Shown here piece by piece: positions 1-4,732 of a DNA stretch of 4,732 nucleotides. The position numbers and the translations under genes were made by a program. How positions within the stretch are numbered: the stretch's first letter is position 1; the number at the start of each line of letters is the position of its first letter. Origin of the DNA: a virus (lineage: Duplodnaviria; Heunggongvirae; Uroviricota; Caudoviricetes); IMG/VR virus record IMGVR_UViG_2529293240_000011, positions 1 through 4,732 of that record; one strand, written 5' to 3'. Under the pieces are notes generated by a model. That model was not told the origin of the DNA, searched no databases, and saw only the letters and a program-made list of their open reading frames with translations.

Positions 1-742
1 TGCCGTAGGGGCCAGCAACGGAATATTCAACTGGCAGCGCATTCCTTACCCAGGCCAGGAAATCACTCTTAGTGTCAAAACGGATAACATCTTCAGGCAG
101 AAAAGCACACCCAAAGCCGAATGCGCCGGGTATCGCCAGACGGCCTTTTGTCCGGTCGTAAATGTCGCTCTGTGCTTCCATCGTGGCCGCACTTTTCAGC
201 CCCAGATTATCCCGGGACTTCTGTTGTGCCTTTTCGCCTGCTGCTGCGATTTCAGACAGATGGTTAGCCGTTTTCAGGGTGCCGGTCAGCGCAGCATCAA
301 TGTCATTTTTGGCCTGTTCTGCTGCGCGGGCATAACCTGCGGCTGCCGCCACATCCTGCGCCGTCTGCTGTGCGTTTCCGGCTGCGGCCCCGGCGCTCTG
401 CTGCGCCTGCGCCACCATTTCCTCAAAGCGTTTGACGACATCCGGTTTCAGGTCGCCCTCATCAGGAGCAATCAGAAAGTCATTCAGCGTGCCGGGCTTT
501 GAGTCCTCATATACAGCAATGTCGCCAACGTTGTACTCGTTGCGCCAGTCCTGTTTCAGATACACACCATATTTTCCAGTCCGCGCATGGAAACAGTATT
601 CACCATCGTTTCCTGTCATCACATCAGCAACAGTGTTCATCACCACTTCCGGGGTGTTTACCCGGGATTTCAGAATAATATGGTATCCGGACATGGGGAT
701 ACCTGCGCCATCAGTCAGCGCACCTGATATCACTACAGACAT
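1..742 (-). CDS. side tail fibre protein, lambda Stf-like N-terminal domain (partial; 3' end lies beyond window start)
   Basis: ATG at 742..740 is the first start after an in-frame TAA at 763..761; I translated the frame by hand and it stays open for 247 codons to position 1. Not in the ORF track because it has no stop in the window. N-terminus MSVVISGALTDGAGIPMSGYHIILKSRVNTPEVV...GDIAVYEDSKPGTLNDFL matches from memory the conserved N-terminal domain of lambda Stf-type side tail fibres (MAVKISGVLKDG...TITVYEDSQPGTLNDFL), followed by an Ala/Gln-rich stretch typical of fibre shafts. Only a weak GAG Shine-Dalgarno in the 23-bp spacer after the upstream gene. Confidence 0.8.
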   Translation of the reverse strand, partial: MSVVISGALTDGAGIPMSGYHIILKSRVNTPEVVMNTVADVMTGNDGEYCFHARTGKYGVYLKQDWRNEYNVGDIAVYEDSKPGTLNDFLIAPDEGDLKPDVVKRFEEMVAQAQQSAGAAAGNAQQTAQDVAAAAGYARAAEQAKNDIDAALTGTLKTANHLSEIAAAGEKAQQKSRDNLGLKSAATMEAQSDIYDRTKGRLAIPGAFGFGCAFLPEDVIRFDTKSDFLAWVRNALPVEYSVAGPYG

Positions 743-765
743 TGTTTTTCTCGCGATAAATTAAA

Positions 766-1311
766 TCAGGAAGAACCTTCCGGAGAGGCGGGCCATTCAA
801 TGGCGTTGTATGAGGATTTATCAGTGATGGTGCTGAAATCCATCGCCTGCAGCGATTTCGCGTAAATACGACAGGCTTTCAGCTTTTCTTTATCTTCGTC
901 GCTGATTAACCCCAGCAGCAGGTCTTCTTCCCATTCCCCTGTCCGGGCACTGACCTGAGCCAGAAGGGCATCACGCTCATCTTCCGCTTTGAGTCTGTAG
1001 TCAAAGACAAATTCATCATTGCGGTAAAACCAGTAACCCGGCGCGGTAATCCGTCGGTTAGCGGTAATATCAGGAACTTCAATAACACTGGCATTGCGTG
1101 GCTCGATGCCTGTCACATCCTTACCGACCCACACCACGCGACCATCTCCGGTGTAAGCTATTTTTATTGTGTCGCTGGCGAAATTCTTCAGCTCTTCATA
1201 CCAGTTTTTTCCGTCTTCTGAAAAAAGCCAGGAGACCGAATATCGTTTTGTCATCTGATATTGTTCTGCTGTTTTCGGATTACCCGCAGTAATATTTTTT
1301 AAATGCAACAT
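766..1311 (-). CDS. tail fibre assembly protein (Tfa chaperone; P2 gpG-like N-terminus, lambda Tfa-like C-terminus)
   Basis: 181-aa ORF whose ATG (1311..1309) lies 2 nt after the fibre stop (TAA, 1316..1314). N-terminus MLHLKNITAGNPKTAEQYQMTKRYSVSWLFSEDGKNWYEE...VIEVPDITANRR resembles P2 gpG as I recall it; C-terminal ...AIEWPASPEGSS resembles the lambda Tfa C-terminus (...DIEWPAVPVME). Position directly downstream of a fibre gene fits a Tfa. Confidence 0.88.
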   Translation of the reverse strand: MLHLKNITAGNPKTAEQYQMTKRYSVSWLFSEDGKNWYEELKNFASDTIKIAYTGDGRVVWVGKDVTGIEPRNASVIEVPDITANRRITAPGYWFYRNDEFVFDYRLKAEDERDALLAQVSARTGEWEEDLLLGLISDEDKEKLKACRIYAKSLQAMDFSTITDKSSYNAIEWPASPEGSS

Positions 1312-1313
1312 TG

Positions 1314-2699
1314 TTAAATACTCGCTACGTTATACCAGGTGCCATTAATCAGTTTTTGCAGTGGTCGGTAATACACACCGTCAACGTTATCCGCTGAGTT
1401 ACGGCCGGTATCCGATATCGCCATCCCTGACAGCCCGTGTCCCGAAGGTGCGCAAAATCTCCACGAAACGGTGTTACTGCCGGGGCTGTAATACATTTCA
1501 TGGCCATACCGTACATCCTGTACCCCCTCTGTTCGATATTTATAGCGGGCATCGAAGTTTCCGTAATTTAACGGAATTACCTGTCCGTTAACAGTGAACA
1601 CTATGCTGTTATCCGGGTTTCTCTGGCTGAAAAAATGCCAGCCTGAATCATCACCAAGCTCTGCAACAACAGGCCTGGATGGATTACCCCACAAATAAAA
1701 CGCTGCATTTTTCGTGGAGTTGTTGGCGCTGGATAACGTGAATTTTCTGGCAGTTCCGGCCTGAATATTCTTAAAAGCAATAGCCACTCCATTCTGAAAG
1801 CGGAATACACGCTGACTATTAGCATAAACATCCAGAATACCGTCTCCATTCTGTTTAAATCCGGTGTCATTATCACCAAGAACAATTGAATTCCCCCCCA
1901 GGGCGTTCTGAACGCCGATACCCAGCGCACCATTGACCTGCGAACCACCGCCAACAGACACTTTATGCGACATGGATATTTCACCCGTCCGCAAATTAAT
2001 GGTGAACGGGCGCAGGGGACCAATATCGCCATTTTCCCCCTGACCTTCACTGGTGGGAATAAGGTGCAGGCACTCTTCCGAACGACGAAAAATCAGGCCA
2101 AAAGCTTCGTTGAAAATCCTCAGCGCATTAACACCACGGATTTTCAGCTCTCCGGTTATTTTATCGCCTTCCCGATGAACATAGCGTTGATCTGACTGCT
2201 CTTTACTGTAAACCTGAAGATTATCCCGTGCCGTCCCTTTATTCTGAAGGTCTGACAGATTGTTCTTCTGCCGCAGGAATATCCTTTTCGGATCCTCAAG
2301 AAGATTTACCCAGCCCGCACTGTCGGAGCCTTCAGGATCGGTCAGGTTATCGTCTGTGGTATTCAGCCAGACCGCTGTTGTTGCGACTCCGGCGAGAATG
2401 GCTCCTTTTGCATATCCACCAATGGCCCCCGCAAAACCGGCATTATACGTGTACAAACCGCCAGCCTGGGCGAACCGTATTGCTGCGGTAATATCGTACA
2501 TCAGACCGTTAAAATCCTTGCCGTGTGGCGGTATACCTCCCGCTGAGACCGCTGTCATGGTCACCGGAGGAAAACCTGAATCATACGCAGCATTACCGCT
2601 CTCTCTGGTCTGCTGTGTCGCCTTGTCCGGGATACGGTTTTTATCTCCGGTACTCGCAAAGGGGACCGCCAGCTGGCGGGGTTTATCACTGGCCTTCAT
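1314..2699 (-). CDS. tail fibre protein with P2 gpH / Mu S-type C-terminal receptor-binding region
   Basis: 461-aa ORF. C-terminal half contains [51 protein letters not shown]...[20 protein letters not shown]...[11 protein letters not shown], which matches the conserved C-terminal region shared by P2 gpH-family fibres (recall, not a search). The N-terminal ~260 aa are not recognisable to me. Start ATG at 2699..2697 is preceded by a strong Shine-Dalgarno (minus strand AAAGGAGTCCCGTAATG). Confidence 0.88.
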
Positions 2700-3290
2700 T
2701 ACGGGACTCCTTTAAAACTACTGAAACATAAACACCCGGCGGGGATGGCAGTGCACCCGACGACTGGATAATCGCCAGTTCTGCCAACGAGAGCGCGGAC
2801 TCAAAGACGTAACTCATCCTCAGCCCACCATTATTCAGAACATAAGCCCGCCGTTTTTTTCCGAACATAAATCTCAGCATCCGGTTAATATCCGGAACGG
2901 AACAGTCAGTAATGTTCGACATGGCTTTCATCAGTATCAGCCGCCGGTATACAGCATCAGACAGGTCAACAGTCCGGGTATCCGATTTTCCGTTGTAAAA
3001 CGGTGCCTGATTAAACGGACAGGGATCATCCATTACCGGGGTGTCCATCCTGGACTCGCTGAAGCCAGGTAATTAAAATCGTCCTTTACCGTCAGCCGGC
3101 GACTGACACCCACAATCTTTCCCCAGACATCAAGACCATACTTTTCTGCGGTATCGATGTTCCAGATAAGACCATAAAAATCACTGATAAAACTGTCGGG
3201 GGAAAGCGCTGCGTTAAAGCTGTTAATGAGGGCATTGAGTCGGGGGCTGGCAGCATACTGCGCAAGCACAGTGGCAGCCACATTCTGCAC
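2686..3290 (-). pseudogene. YmfQ/DUF2313-like phage tail (baseplate) protein gene, split by an apparent 1-nt frameshift
   Basis: Two adjacent minus-strand ORFs in different frames: 3033..3290 (GTG start, 85 aa) and 2686..3048 (120 aa; that frame is open upstream to 3072). The first carries ...FYGLIWNIDTAEKYGLDVWGKIVGVSRRL..., the N-terminal signature I associate with the e14 YmfQ / Mu gp48 (DUF2313) family; the second carries the C-terminal pattern (...YRRLI...NITD...YVFESAL...ELAIIQSSGALPSPPGV). Together they give the expected ~200 aa. The frame change maps to about 3066..3075 (minus strand GATTTTAATTACCTGGC), where one extra T would restore ...DFNLPGFSES.... Could be a real pseudogene or a sequencing indel. 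Confidence 0.6.
2707..2712 (-). promoter_or_regulatory. Shine-Dalgarno (AAGGAG) for the tail fibre gene
   Basis: Minus-strand AAGGAG (plus-strand ctcctt at 2707..2712) sits 7 nt upstream of the ATG at 2699. It lies inside the 3' end of the preceding gene, which overlaps the fibre start by 14 nt. Confidence 0.6.
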
Positions 3291-3291
3291 G

Positions 3292-3534
3292 TTATGCCTC
3301 CTGGAGTTTCACACTGATATCCGACACATCCAGAACCGGAATCTCATCTATCCCGAAAGTGACAGCCGTTGTCCATGACGAACCGTCACGGCTCACAGTA
3401 AGGCCCAGAATATCAATATGTTCCGGATCGGTTTTGTAAATGCCGGCATAGTAGCGCCCGGCAGAGACAACAGAGGCAACCCTTGCCCGCAGACCACCAT
3501 CTGTACCATTAAATGCGTCCAGCACGGATTGCTG
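3292..3534 (-). pseudogene. 3' remnant of a tail/baseplate gene (baseplate J-like by synteny) truncated by the IS insertion
   Basis: The reading frame ending at TAA (3294..3292) stays open upstream across the proposed IS boundary at 3535 and into IS sequence, stopping only at 3603..3601, so the native 5' part of the gene is missing. The stop is 1 nt from the GTG start of the YmfQ-like gene, suggesting translational coupling. In P2/Mu/e14-type modules the gene before the I/YmfQ-like gene is baseplate J; I cannot recognise the 81-aa remnant itself, so identity rests on position. Confidence 0.45.
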
Positions 3535-3560
3535 GTAAGCGCCCCGAGAAGTACGTAGCG
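3535..3560. repeat. putative terminal inverted repeat (IRR) of the IS66-family element
   Basis: GTAAGCGCCCCGAGAAGTACGTAGCG at the inferred IS terminus. Its extent is a guess because the partner IR at the other IS end is outside the window. Confidence 0.4.
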
Positions 3561-3566
3561 TAAGGA

Positions 3567-4732
3567 TTATTTTACAGACGAGAAGTTCCAGGGCAGCAGT
3601 TCATGCACTTGGTTCGACGGCCAGTCATTGAGCTTCTCGATCACTTCGCGCAACCAGTCCTCCGGCTCCACTTCGTTCTGTTTGCAGGTGACCAGCAGAC
3701 TGTAGATGATCGCCGCACTTTCTCCTCCCTTGTCTGAGCCGAAAAAGAGATAATTTTTTCTTCCAACCGCCACCGATCGTAACGCGTTTTCACCGATGTT
3801 GTTGTCTATTTCCACCCAGCCGTCACGACAGAACTCGTTCAGCGCATTCCAGTGATTCAGGATATAGTCGAACGCCTTCGCCATCTCCGCATGTTTCGAC
3901 AGCGTTTTCCTCTGCAACTGTATCCAGTCGTACAACGACTGCATCAACTGGACGCTTCTGGCTTTTCTGACTGCAAGCCGTTCCTCTGCCGGACTGCCAC
4001 GTATCTCCGCTTCTATGTCGTATAACTCTGCTATCCGTCTGAGCGCTTCCTGAGTCATTTCTGTCGGACGGCGCACATCCTCGTCATGGATTTTTCGGCG
4101 GGCGTGGGCCAGGCACCCGGCTTCCTTCACCCGACCCGTTTCGTACAGTACGTTATAACCTGCATAGGCATCAGCCTGCAGTACGCCCTGATACTTTGCC
4201 AGGTGGAGCTGCGGATGTTCTCCTTTGCGATCTGCCGAATACGCGAACCAGACGGCTGCCGGCAGGGATGAACCCGCATTACGATCATCCCTGACGTATA
4301 CCCACAGACGACCCGTTTTCGTCTTTCCGTTCCCCGGGGCCAGTACTTTCACCGGAGTGTCATCTGCGTGCACCTTTCCTGCCTCCAGAACATAGTCATT
4401 CAGCGCTATATACAGAGGACGGAGTTTGTCTGCCATTTCTGATACCCAGCGCACCATGGTATTACGGCTCAGCTCCACGCCCTGTCGCGCGTATATTTCT
4501 GACTGGCGATATAAAGGGATATGTTCCATATATTTGCTGACCAGGATCCGTGCAAGTAACCCTGCACTGGCATAACCGCGTTCGATCGGTTTAGGGGGAA
4601 GTGGTGCCTGAACGATGACATCACACCGGCTACAGGCCAGTTTGGGACGTATGGTTTCGATAACTTTAAAGGCGGTATTAATGATATCCAGTTGCTCTGA
4701 GATTGTTTCCCCATTTCTTTCAGAACACCTCC
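3567..4732 (-). CDS. IS66-family DDE transposase (TnpC-type), partial; N-terminus beyond window end
   Basis: Stop TAA at 3569..3567. I checked by hand that the frame stays open from the ORF-track methionine (4529) up to the window edge (...[80 protein letters not shown]...), so the track's 4529 start is an artefact and about 388 codons are in the window. Motifs LACSRCD (zinc-finger region), [40 protein letters not shown] and ELLPWN are characteristic of IS66 TnpC proteins (recall). Confidence 0.85.

Follow-up and report, generated by a model that had tools for sequence, protein, structure and literature searches.

A mosaic tail fibre gene of a Shigella flexneri prophage, probably a relic, with a Mu S/P1 S/P2 gpH-type distal cassette

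The window, by which we mean the whole 4,732-nt stretch of DNA that was analysed, carries a tail fibre gene that very probably encodes a subunit of a contractile-tailed S. flexneri prophage, recombined in four nucleotide patches from a baseplate anchor and a Mu S/P1 S/P2 gpH-type distal cassette and likely now a relic. In an exact look-up, the ORF product was identical to the S. flexneri 'tail fiber protein' EGM60825.1 / EIQ11028.1, and the PHROGs tail fibre family phrog_6859 matched it with E = 8.9e-124; no Pfam or NCBIfam family was found for the 461-aa protein. E-values of the fibre matches span 1e-14 to 1e-186, all far beyond chance. The ORF encodes a genuine, mosaic tail fibre, already annotated and ordinary. 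Assembling a fibre as a patchwork of modules from unrelated phages is a long-known route to host-range change. The fibre is textbook modularity, and the gene changes no open question in Shigella biology. A preliminary description of this DNA had proposed a mosaic, domain-shuffled fibre with a distal end of P2 gpH / Mu S type. This core idea holds, and the peptides quoted there were found in the product of the ORF at 1314..2699 on the minus strand. The features of the window are as follows.

2..742, minus strand: second fibre, N-terminal 247 aa with a lambda Stf-type anchor (PF08400, E = 1e-70); the gene runs off the window
766..1311, minus strand: tail fibre assembly chaperone (Tfa), 181 aa (PF02413 Caudo_TAP, E = 7.9e-27)
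1314..2699, minus strand: tail fibre gene, 461 aa plus stop, an uninterrupted ATG-to-stop ORF
2295..2699, minus strand: predicted N-terminal baseplate-anchor domain of Pbunavirus gp47 / Bcep781 type, aa 1-135 (homologues and fold match)
2162..2276, minus strand: linker with a KNNLSDL...GD motif, aa 142-179 (to ~180), aligning with Mu S and phiP27 L54
1895..2161, minus strand: patch B, module of Mu S / P1 S / T4 gp34 type, aa 180-268, aligning with Mu S 268-365 and T4 gp34
1765..1888, minus strand: patch C, conserved homology box [30 protein letters not shown], aa ~271-312, P2 H-like
1314..1764, minus strand: patch D, distal shaft and putative receptor-binding tip, aa 313-461 (nucleotide identities and Mu S alignment)
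2686..3290, minus strand: DUF2612 baseplate wedge gene, predicted docking partner of the anchor (PF11041 on both halves)
3292..3534, minus strand: baseplate J, C-terminal remnant cut by an IS element (homology to the relatives L001 and L003 ends at 3534)
3535..4732, minus strand: ISSfl3 (IS66 family), partial in the window, transposase frame broken (PF03050 and PF13817)

The fibre subunit, presumably trimeric as in its relatives, would run from the anchor (aa 1-~135) through a short KNNLSD...GD linker into the distal cassette (aa ~174-461). Within the cassette, aa 181-254 would form a Mu S/gp34-like module and aa ~255-314 a conserved homology box; beyond a shaft segment, the variable tip would span aa ~387-445, with the conserved [15 protein letters not shown] sequence as its cap.

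Structure prediction gives aa 1-~135, a widespread anchor domain, the bead I fold of Pa193 gp47. The AF2 model of this domain reached a pLDDT of 90.8, and its top Foldseek match was PDB 9b45, the Pa193 tail fibre (E = 7.8e-7, TMq 0.59, probability 1.00, 134 columns). Only the fold search yielded a full-domain match; searching the PDB with the N-terminal profile gave partial matches only (aa ~79-136), to Acinetobacter phage tailspikes. In an exhaustive search (E ≤ 1e-3), the domain was matched by 5114 cluster representatives at 50% identity and, among the best 150 of these 5114, nearly every match fell on the first ~135 residues of a protein of 177-1208 aa, ahead of distal parts that vary. Finding these homologues required the exhaustive search, as a word-indexed protein search gave 9 close matches only. 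Pseudomonas phage Pa193 (Pbunavirus) gp47 (PDB 9B45) has the fold of its N-terminal ~135 aa in common with our fibre at only 22% identity, whereas gp82 of Aeromonas phage 56 and gp33 of Bcep1 share 32-52% sequence identity with the fibre N-terminus. Beyond aa ~140 the fibres of Pa193, Bcep1 and phage 56 are unrelated to this one and lack a Mu S/P2 H-type cassette. The ~260 N-terminal residues were initially called unrecognised, which does not stand, given the PHROGs families and the thousands of homologues for the N-terminal part. Neither do they form one unit: the region divides into anchor (1-~135), linker (142-180) and a Mu S/P1 S/gp34-type module (181-254). No Pfam or NCBIfam model covers aa 1-135, which leaves an annotation gap for a very common fibre anchor.

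By analogy with Pa193, in which bead I of gp47 binds a loop of the wedge protein gp46 (PMC11456595), the anchor would dock on the DUF2612 wedge encoded immediately upstream. An intact homologue of the DUF2612 protein matches the wedge proteins 9zd7 gp89 and 7kh1 gp17. Pa193 gp46 itself is matched only weakly (E = 0.17), so we infer the docking partner from gene order and from the stronger matches to those other wedges. Genes for baseplate J, the DUF2612 wedge and the fibre come in this order in the window, in L001 and L003, and in phage 56, Bcep1, phiAC-1 and Pantoea PA-1, with a further fibre gene interposed in phage 56 and phiAC-1. The fibres of phiP27 (L54) and of an Escherichia coli FDAARGOS_944 prophage (L006) instead begin with an unrelated N-terminus (MHRIDTL...) and are preceded by a homologue of the Mu gp48 wedge gene; Mu gp48 bears the fibre docking loop (PMC11915804). 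Of the two prophage types, one has the DUF2612 wedge and the other the Mu gp48/phiP27 wedge. The anchor family that would pair with DUF2612 spans >5000 clusters at 50% identity.

Distal to the anchor, alignments place the fibre in the Mu S / P1 S / P2 gpH-type distal cassette group that is accompanied by Tfa. The linker motif also aligns with the gp92 short tail fibre (PDB 9zd7), and similarity to Mu S, P1 S, SfMu, P7 S and T4 gp34 begins at aa ~181, with SfMu and P1 S aligning from there to the end. For Mu S (5yvq_A, E = 5.6e-14), aa 181-283 align with S 268-365 and aa 362-460 with S 416-503; identity to Mu S is only about 25-50%, and Mu S docks on gp48 whereas our fibre gene follows DUF2612. 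Because the Mu S/P1 S similarity starts at aa ~181, the exchanged part is about 280-290 aa long, rather than the roughly 200 aa first proposed. Patch D also aligns with residues 481-552 of the PhiTE short tail fibre, and its variable tip (aa ~387-445) is followed by a conserved [17 protein letters not shown] end. An AF2 monomer model of aa 181-461 was of low confidence (pLDDT 58.7), and its first Foldseek match, again 5yvq_A, had E = 6.1e-9 and a TM score of only 0.35. Since this model is poor, its fold match to Mu S adds little beyond the sequence match, and the extra tip residues cannot be placed in loops.

P2 gpH 477-669 aligns with aa 255-461 (61% identity, E = 3e-80), which agrees with the earlier estimate that a P2 gpH-type C-terminus starts at about aa 260. 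A 47-aa stretch (aa 268-314) is 100% identical to P2 gpH, about 125 nt are 92-95% identical, and the two proteins share the C-terminal INGTWYNVA motif; the terminal motif stays conserved across the aligned sequences. In contrast, gpH carries an N-terminal PF12571 domain and PF03406 repeats, neither of which the fibre has, and aligning gpH 1-476 with aa 1-254 revealed no counterpart. A full-length P2 gpH of Peduovirus type is ruled out by the same lack of a Pfam match and of an alignment to gpH 1-476. A lambda Stf-type side tail fibre is ruled out as well, because the fibre lacks PF08400, which is present in the next gene (2-742). The statement that the N-terminus is not a P2 gpH or Stf attachment domain was thus correct. 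Of the proposed C-terminal resemblance to P2 gpH, Mu S and Stf, the first two were borne out and Stf was not, as BLASTP found no similarity between the fibre and the lambda Stf C-terminus (orf-314; best E = 1.4). The tip region is strongly diverged from gpH and 14 residues longer, in three gaps between GNFDxRY and the terminal motif, so extra residues do exist where a C-proximal insert had been described; the same region is gap-free in L001, L003 and L006, however, and nearly so in the PhiTE short tail fibre (PDB 9cuy). Read from these alignments, the 'insert' is a length-variable tip cassette, not an insertion into a fixed backbone.

The Tfa gene begins 3 nt after the stop codon of the fibre, and its product matches Mu U (chain 5yvq_B, E = 4.6e-37), P2 gpG (39% identity) and phiP27 L55 (73% identity). 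The second fibre is 44% identical to lambda orf-401 and 58% identical to phiP27 L56, and in phiP27 (L54, L55, L56) and L006, as in the window, the fibre gene is followed by Tfa and then by an Stf-type second fibre. The tip would rely on the downstream Mu U/P2 gpG-type chaperone for folding, and would bind a cell-surface receptor that, going by Mu and P2, is probably LPS. The tip is at most 50% identical to any characterised fibre, and the closest tip among PDB sequences belongs to a flagellotropic phage fibre with an unmodelled C-terminus.

Close relatives resolve the fibre gene further. L003, the 466-aa fibre of the enteroinvasive E. coli (EIEC) strain RMDEC465, and L001, the 410-aa fibre of CFSAN029787, share both their prophage type and their chromosomal neighbourhood (sitABCD, ipaH3) with this locus. 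Both prophage types adjoin ipaH effector genes in relatives. The first 178 residues of L003 and L001 are identical to the fibre, aa 180-267 are replaced by a P2 gpH-type module (aa 180-254 being of Mu S type in the fibre and of P2 type in these two), and from aa 268 onward L003 is again ~97% identical, while L001 lacks a ~50-aa shaft segment of the fibre. Collinearity with L006 extends from aa 174 to the C-terminus (85% amino acid and 91.6% nucleotide identity). L54 of the Stx2e phage phiP27 is identical to the fibre over aa 183-271 and 81% identical over aa 142-304, with the ~50-aa shaft segment missing and a different, shorter tip. Elsewhere in Escherichia/Shigella prophages, one cassette with 75-98% identity is carried on the PF12571 P2-type anchor, the Mu/phiP27-type anchor and the present one, and a single distal cassette can thus serve three different baseplate anchors.

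At the nucleotide level, the gene falls into four patches, with 100% identity to the EIEC prophage, 98.5% to the Mu/phiP27-type prophage, 92-95% to P2 H and 97-100% to the EIEC prophage, and sliding-window identities leap from 100% to about 30% and back. The sharpest breakpoint, at the 3' end of the linker, is the anchor/cassette crossover zone at window positions 2162-2180 (aa 174-180), where identity to L003 holds at 100% down to about 2165 and identity to L006 starts at 2180. This mapping at the nucleotide level, which the preliminary description had suggested, produced a sharp switch from L003 to L006 and moved the main junction away from the proposed aa 260; aa 255-268 mark the start of the P2-like patch only. 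Patch B is 98.5% identical to the L006 fibre and 92.8% to phiP27 L54, and nucleotide comparison found no similarity to L003. Patch C is 92-95% identical to P2 H compared to 78-84% to L003 and L006, and an allele from E. marmotae has a non-P2 version of the box. In patch D, identity is 97-100% with L003, 91% with L006 and no more than 70% with P2 H. Taken at face value, these identities describe a fibre gene recombined from four patches, with its nearest relatives in two resident Shigella/EIEC prophage types and in P2-like phages and its crossovers in short conserved motifs. Full-length collinear matches do exist, at 98% in S. boydii and at 92% in E. marmotae; being uncharacterised prophage alleles of this gene, they do not amount to the single well-characterised family that would have contradicted the preliminary mosaic.

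Three other accounts of the gene's structure and origin were weighed against this patchwork. A single fusion of a novel ~260-aa N-terminal region to a ~200-aa P2 gpH-type module, followed by a C-terminal insertion, would fit the start of gpH similarity at aa 255, a protein without a Pfam or NCBIfam family and the 14 residues extra to gpH. It is nevertheless very unlikely, because aa 1-135 have thousands of homologues and a structural match, aa 181-254 match Mu S, P1 S, gp34 and phiP27, the sharpest nucleotide breakpoint lies at aa 174-180 and the 'insert' is gap-free in the nearest relatives. Fibre tip regions evolve fast under host selection, which is the one general argument for a single lineage with some faster-evolving segments and no recombination. 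Such a lineage would hardly go, over some 20 nt, from 100% identity with one relative to an unalignable ~30% just as identity with another climbs to 98-100%, nor exchange modules that differ in length and fold (P2-type in L003, Mu S-type here), nor place one cassette on three unrelated anchors, and we give this account almost no chance. Homology of the cassette and Tfa to Mu S/U and P1/P7 S, together with the second fibre gene that comes next, might also suggest a host-range switch in which alternative fibre ends are exchanged by inversion, as in the Mu G or P1 C segment. The second fibre is co-oriented and has its own complete Stf-type N-terminus, however, positions 1-3534 hold no inverted repeat >16 nt, and the inspected parts of the L001, L003 and L006 loci carry no annotated invertase, so that a switch of this kind is extremely improbable.

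The prophage that carries the recombinant fibre is defective: ISSfl3, 99.8% identical to annotated copies (1198 versus 1199 nt), truncates baseplate J, which in intact form in L003 is a 413-aa protein with PF04865, and the DUF2612 gene is split into two ORFs by a 1-bp deletion near 3067 (GGG to GG compared with the intact L003 gene). With both baseplate genes damaged, the fibre could probably not be mounted on its own baseplate, so the most likely status of the intact ORF is that of a recent relic, not a working adhesin. A fibre that still functions, either because particles of another intact DUF2612-type prophage or tailocin in the genome carry it or because selection retains it in a different role, would account for an ORF and Tfa that are intact amid broken neighbours and for the persistence of 461-aa alleles in S. 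flexneri, S. boydii, S. dysenteriae and E. marmotae. However, nucleotide identity with the EIEC allele is 97-100% in patches A and D, so the intactness of the ORF may reflect too little time for decay; ISSfl3 also interrupts the upstream late operon, and a promoter and terminator scan gave nothing above chance, with no promoter-like site in front of the fibre gene. We consider continued function unlikely, though less so than the three accounts above. Even as a relic, the intact fibre ORF could serve as a recombination donor.

More tentatively, and with somewhat more doubt than conviction, we suggest that two unrelated contractile-tail prophage types fixed in Shigella/EIEC re-shuffle one fibre cassette within the same cell, and that the DUF2612-pairing anchor represents a large unmodelled family. 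EIEC strain RMDEC465 holds both donor prophage types. If re-shuffling does occur, decayed prophages would serve as a lasting store of receptor-binding modules on which incoming phages could draw; a literature search on ipaH prophages found nothing specific to this tail module. The fibre offers a clean, nucleotide-resolved case of module rebuilding with crossovers in short conserved motifs, and chimeric fibres can be designed around these motifs. In an engineering study (PMC9594776), a fusion point was set in a gpH homology region, aa 481-516, which overlaps the start of the present box.

The fibre gene is an open reading frame of 461 codons without interruption (window 1314..2699, minus strand), in which all of the peptides quoted by the preliminary description are present. 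Its product is an exact match to Shigella flexneri entries EGM60825.1, EIQ11028.1 and others, which carry the names ‘tail fiber protein’ or ‘phage tail protein’, and belongs to a 90%-identity cluster of just 6 members. Alleles of 461 aa were found in S. boydii (98% identical), S. dysenteriae and Escherichia marmotae (92% identical). The protein falls in PHROGs tail-fibre families (phrog_6859, E 8.9e-124), and searches of Pfam and NCBIfam with it found no model.

Features of the tail module, reading the minus strand 5' to 3' (window coordinates)
3535-4732: ISSfl3 (IS66 family), the first element; transposase frame broken
ending at 3534, minus: baseplate J remnant; only the last ~80 codons left, the rest removed by ISSfl3
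2686-3290, minus: DUF2612 wedge gene, as two ORFs (85 aa and 120 aa)
1314..2699, minus: fibre gene, next after DUF2612 and overlapping it by 14 nt
766-1311, minus: tail fibre assembly chaperone gene (Tfa), PF02413
2-742, minus: second fibre, first 247 codons, downstream of Tfa; N-terminus of lambda Stf type (PF08400)

The N-terminal ~260 aa had been described as unrecognised, which proved incorrect. Using aa 1-140 in an exhaustive HMMER search, we recovered representatives of 5114 clusters at 50% identity (E<=1e-3; 3886 at E<=1e-10). Among the matches listed, the match almost always lay at residues 1-~135 of proteins 177-1208 aa long, which is how an anchor domain joined to variable distal parts would look. 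Phage homologues (32-52% identity) included fibres of Aeromonas phage 56, Klebsiella prophages, Pantoea PA-1, Acinetobacter phages and Burkholderia Bcep1. A confident AlphaFold2 model of the anchor, built from 32 diverse sequences (pLDDT 90.8), had as its best PDB match the baseplate tail fibre chain of Pseudomonas phage Pa193 (9B45; E 7.8e-7, probability 1.00, TMq 0.59 over 134 of 140 columns). The second half of the anchor (aa ~79-136) is also similar to the part of Acinetobacter phage tailspikes that follows their particle-binding domain, and its pattern GGYPxGA...W...N..DP...GW is found in the tailspike depolymerases of such phages (PDB 24qi, 8opz and 5js4). In the cryo-EM work on Pa193 (PMC11456595), bead I of the fibre, gp47, is described as binding a loop of the wedge protein gp46. 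In all four distant phages checked, a fibre with this anchor comes immediately after DUF2612 or is separated from it by one fibre gene, and the order of DUF2612 followed by the fibre supports a docking role for the anchor here. An intact DUF2612 protein matched the solved wedge proteins 9zd7 gp89 and 7kh1 gp17 (E ~1e-7) and, weakly, Pa193 gp46 and E217 gp45 (E 0.17). By fold, position and synteny, the fibre belongs to the Pa193/Bcep781-type anchor family, whose domain (aa 1-135, window 2295-2699, minus strand) is covered by PHROGs families only, Pfam-A and NCBIfam having no model of it.

With aa 181-461 as the query, 2496 proteins were recovered; the best 120 matched it over nearly all of its length (71-100% identity), and fell into three classes of length and architecture.

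Architectures carrying the distal cassette
Class 1, 461 aa: anchor of the type in the window; Shigella species and E. marmotae
Class 2, 395-402 aa: Mu/phiP27-type N-terminus
Class 3, 453-476 aa: PF12571, the P2 gpH N-terminal domain

This occurrence on three anchors is direct evidence that the unit exchanged is a distal cassette of ~280-290 aa, correcting the module of ~200 aa proposed initially. Nucleotide comparison with five relatives further divided the gene into four patches.

Patches of the fibre gene (gene nt; window; aa)
A (1-~535; 2699..~2165; 1-178): 100% identical to the fibre of the RMDEC465 prophage
B (~539-805; 2161..~1895; 180-268): RMDEC465 unalignable; E. coli FDAARGOS_944 fibre 98.5%; phiP27 L54 92.8%
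C (~812-925; ~1888..~1765; ~271-312): P2 H 92-95%; RMDEC465 and FDAARGOS_944 78-84%
D (~936-1386; 1764..1314; 313-461): RMDEC465 97-100%; FDAARGOS_944 91%; P2 H at most 70%

The FDAARGOS_944 and phiP27 fibres, from Mu/phiP27-type prophages, differ from that of the window in their N-terminus and in being preceded by a Mu gp48 homologue; the E. marmotae allele has a non-P2 version of patch C. The junction between A and B, at window 2162-2180 (aa 174-180), lies inside a conserved motif, V-H/Q-R-E/D-G-D. Those between B and C and between C and D lie inside a homology box, NALGGxSIxxGDNDTGxKQNGDGxLDVYANxQxVFRFQNG, that hardly varies among the six aligned fibres. Its first part overlaps the homology region (gpH aa 481-516) in which an engineering study set a gpH/gp37 fusion point (PMC9594776). 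RMDEC465 carries both prophage types on one chromosome, which makes it physically plausible that resident prophages recombine.

Within the cassette, two stretches aligned with Mu S (PDB 5YVQ chain A; whole-sequence E 5.6e-14), aa 181-283 with S 268-365 and aa 362-460 with S 416-503; matches to P1 S, SfMu S and P7 Sv' began at aa ~181 and ran to the end, and aa 182-263 and 325-379 matched T4 gp34 C-terminal structures. P2 gpH aligned over aa 255-461 (gpH 477-669, 61% identity; aa 268-314 identical). The downstream Tfa matched Mu U of the same crystal structure as Mu S (5yvq_B, E 4.6e-37) and was 39% identical to P2 gpG. A monomer model of aa 181-461 had low confidence (pLDDT 58.7), with 5yvq_A at the top Foldseek rank and a TM of only 0.35, so that the assignment of the distal part as Mu S/P2 H-type rests on sequence. 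By sequence and chaperone, the fibre is a member of that cassette family. The proposed C-terminal likeness stands for P2 gpH and Mu S and fails for lambda Stf, to which the fibre showed no similarity (orf-314, E 1.4); a Stf-type fibre was rejected, the protein also lacking PF08400. The possibility of a P2 gpH orthologue was rejected as well, since gpH has PF12571 and PF03406 features and the window fibre lacks both, as was membership of an invertible switch, no inverted repeat longer than 16 nt having been found in window 1-3534.

A C-proximal insert had also been proposed. Across six aligned fibres, the stretch between the GNFDxRY...V(Q/K)DVRxG box and the RPxQKxINGxWxNVA end has three versions: long (window, CFSAN029787, RMDEC465 and FDAARGOS_944), shorter in phiP27 and shorter in P2. 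That of the window has 14 residues more than P2 gpH and 11 more than Mu S, shows no gaps against close relatives and is nearly gap-free against the phage PhiTE short tail fibre sequence (PDB 9CUY, where the C-terminus is unmodelled). The longer stretch is a hypervariable, length-variable tip, which would hold receptor specificity, rather than an insertion. Overall, the mosaic was borne out in part and its interpretation supported in part, with boundaries corrected.

Intact versions of the tail module occur in enteroinvasive or other E. coli (CFSAN029787, beside sitABCD; RMDEC465, beside ipaH3), which makes the window, in Shigella, a prophage tail module in decay. ISSfl3 interrupts the late operon, and two baseplate genes are broken in the genome studied. 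The edge of the element (3534|3535) is the truncation point of baseplate J, and homology to related prophages ends exactly at 3534; DUF2612 is split by a 1-bp deletion (GGG to GG) near 3067 relative to the intact RMDEC465 gene. The ISSfl3 copy shares 99.8% identity with annotated E. coli copies, being one base shorter over the stretch (1198 versus 1199 nt), and is itself probably frameshifted, its transposase frame being split into overlapping ORFs of 320 aa and 81 aa. A scan upstream of the fibre gene found no promoter-like site above chance. Because patches A and D are near-identical to the enteroinvasive allele, the intact fibre frame is no evidence of selection. For these reasons, the fibre gene is most likely a relic that may yet pass sequence to incoming phages, the latter an idea reportedly already known from work on defective prophages.

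Domain homologies, gene order, patchwork and damage to upstream genes were observed directly; the working steps draw on Pa193 and Mu cryo-EM and on general knowledge of P2/Mu fibres and chaperones. The fibre would comprise three chains, with the anchor docking on the DUF2612 wedge and Tfa helping the tip to fold; the tip would bind a surface receptor, probably LPS, and binding would be relayed to the baseplate. The biology of the gene is ordinary, and only the fine-scale patch map, the spread of the cassette over three anchors and the absence of a curated anchor-domain model are mildly new. Knowledge that the fibre ends of P2 H, Mu S and P1 S are exchanged horizontally dates back to the sequencing of the P2 fibre genes (Haggard-Ljungquist et al. 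1992, as cited in PMC9594776).

Several other features of these loci were observed. The N-terminus of the second fibre matched PF08400 at E 1e-70 and was 44% identical to lambda orf-401. The order fibre, Tfa, Stf-type fibre, DUF4376 is common to two unrelated myovirus tail modules, of DUF2612 and Mu/phiP27 type. Both prophage tail types sharing the cassette adjoin ipaH effector genes (ipaH3 and ipaHe, in RMDEC465 and FDAARGOS_944), and one adjoins sitABCD. Finally, a shaft segment of ~50 aa, flanked by two conserved boxes, is a further presence/absence cassette, kept in the window, RMDEC465, FDAARGOS_944 and P2 gpH and missing from the CFSAN029787 (L001 10314-11546) and phiP27 (L004 4755-5753) fibres.
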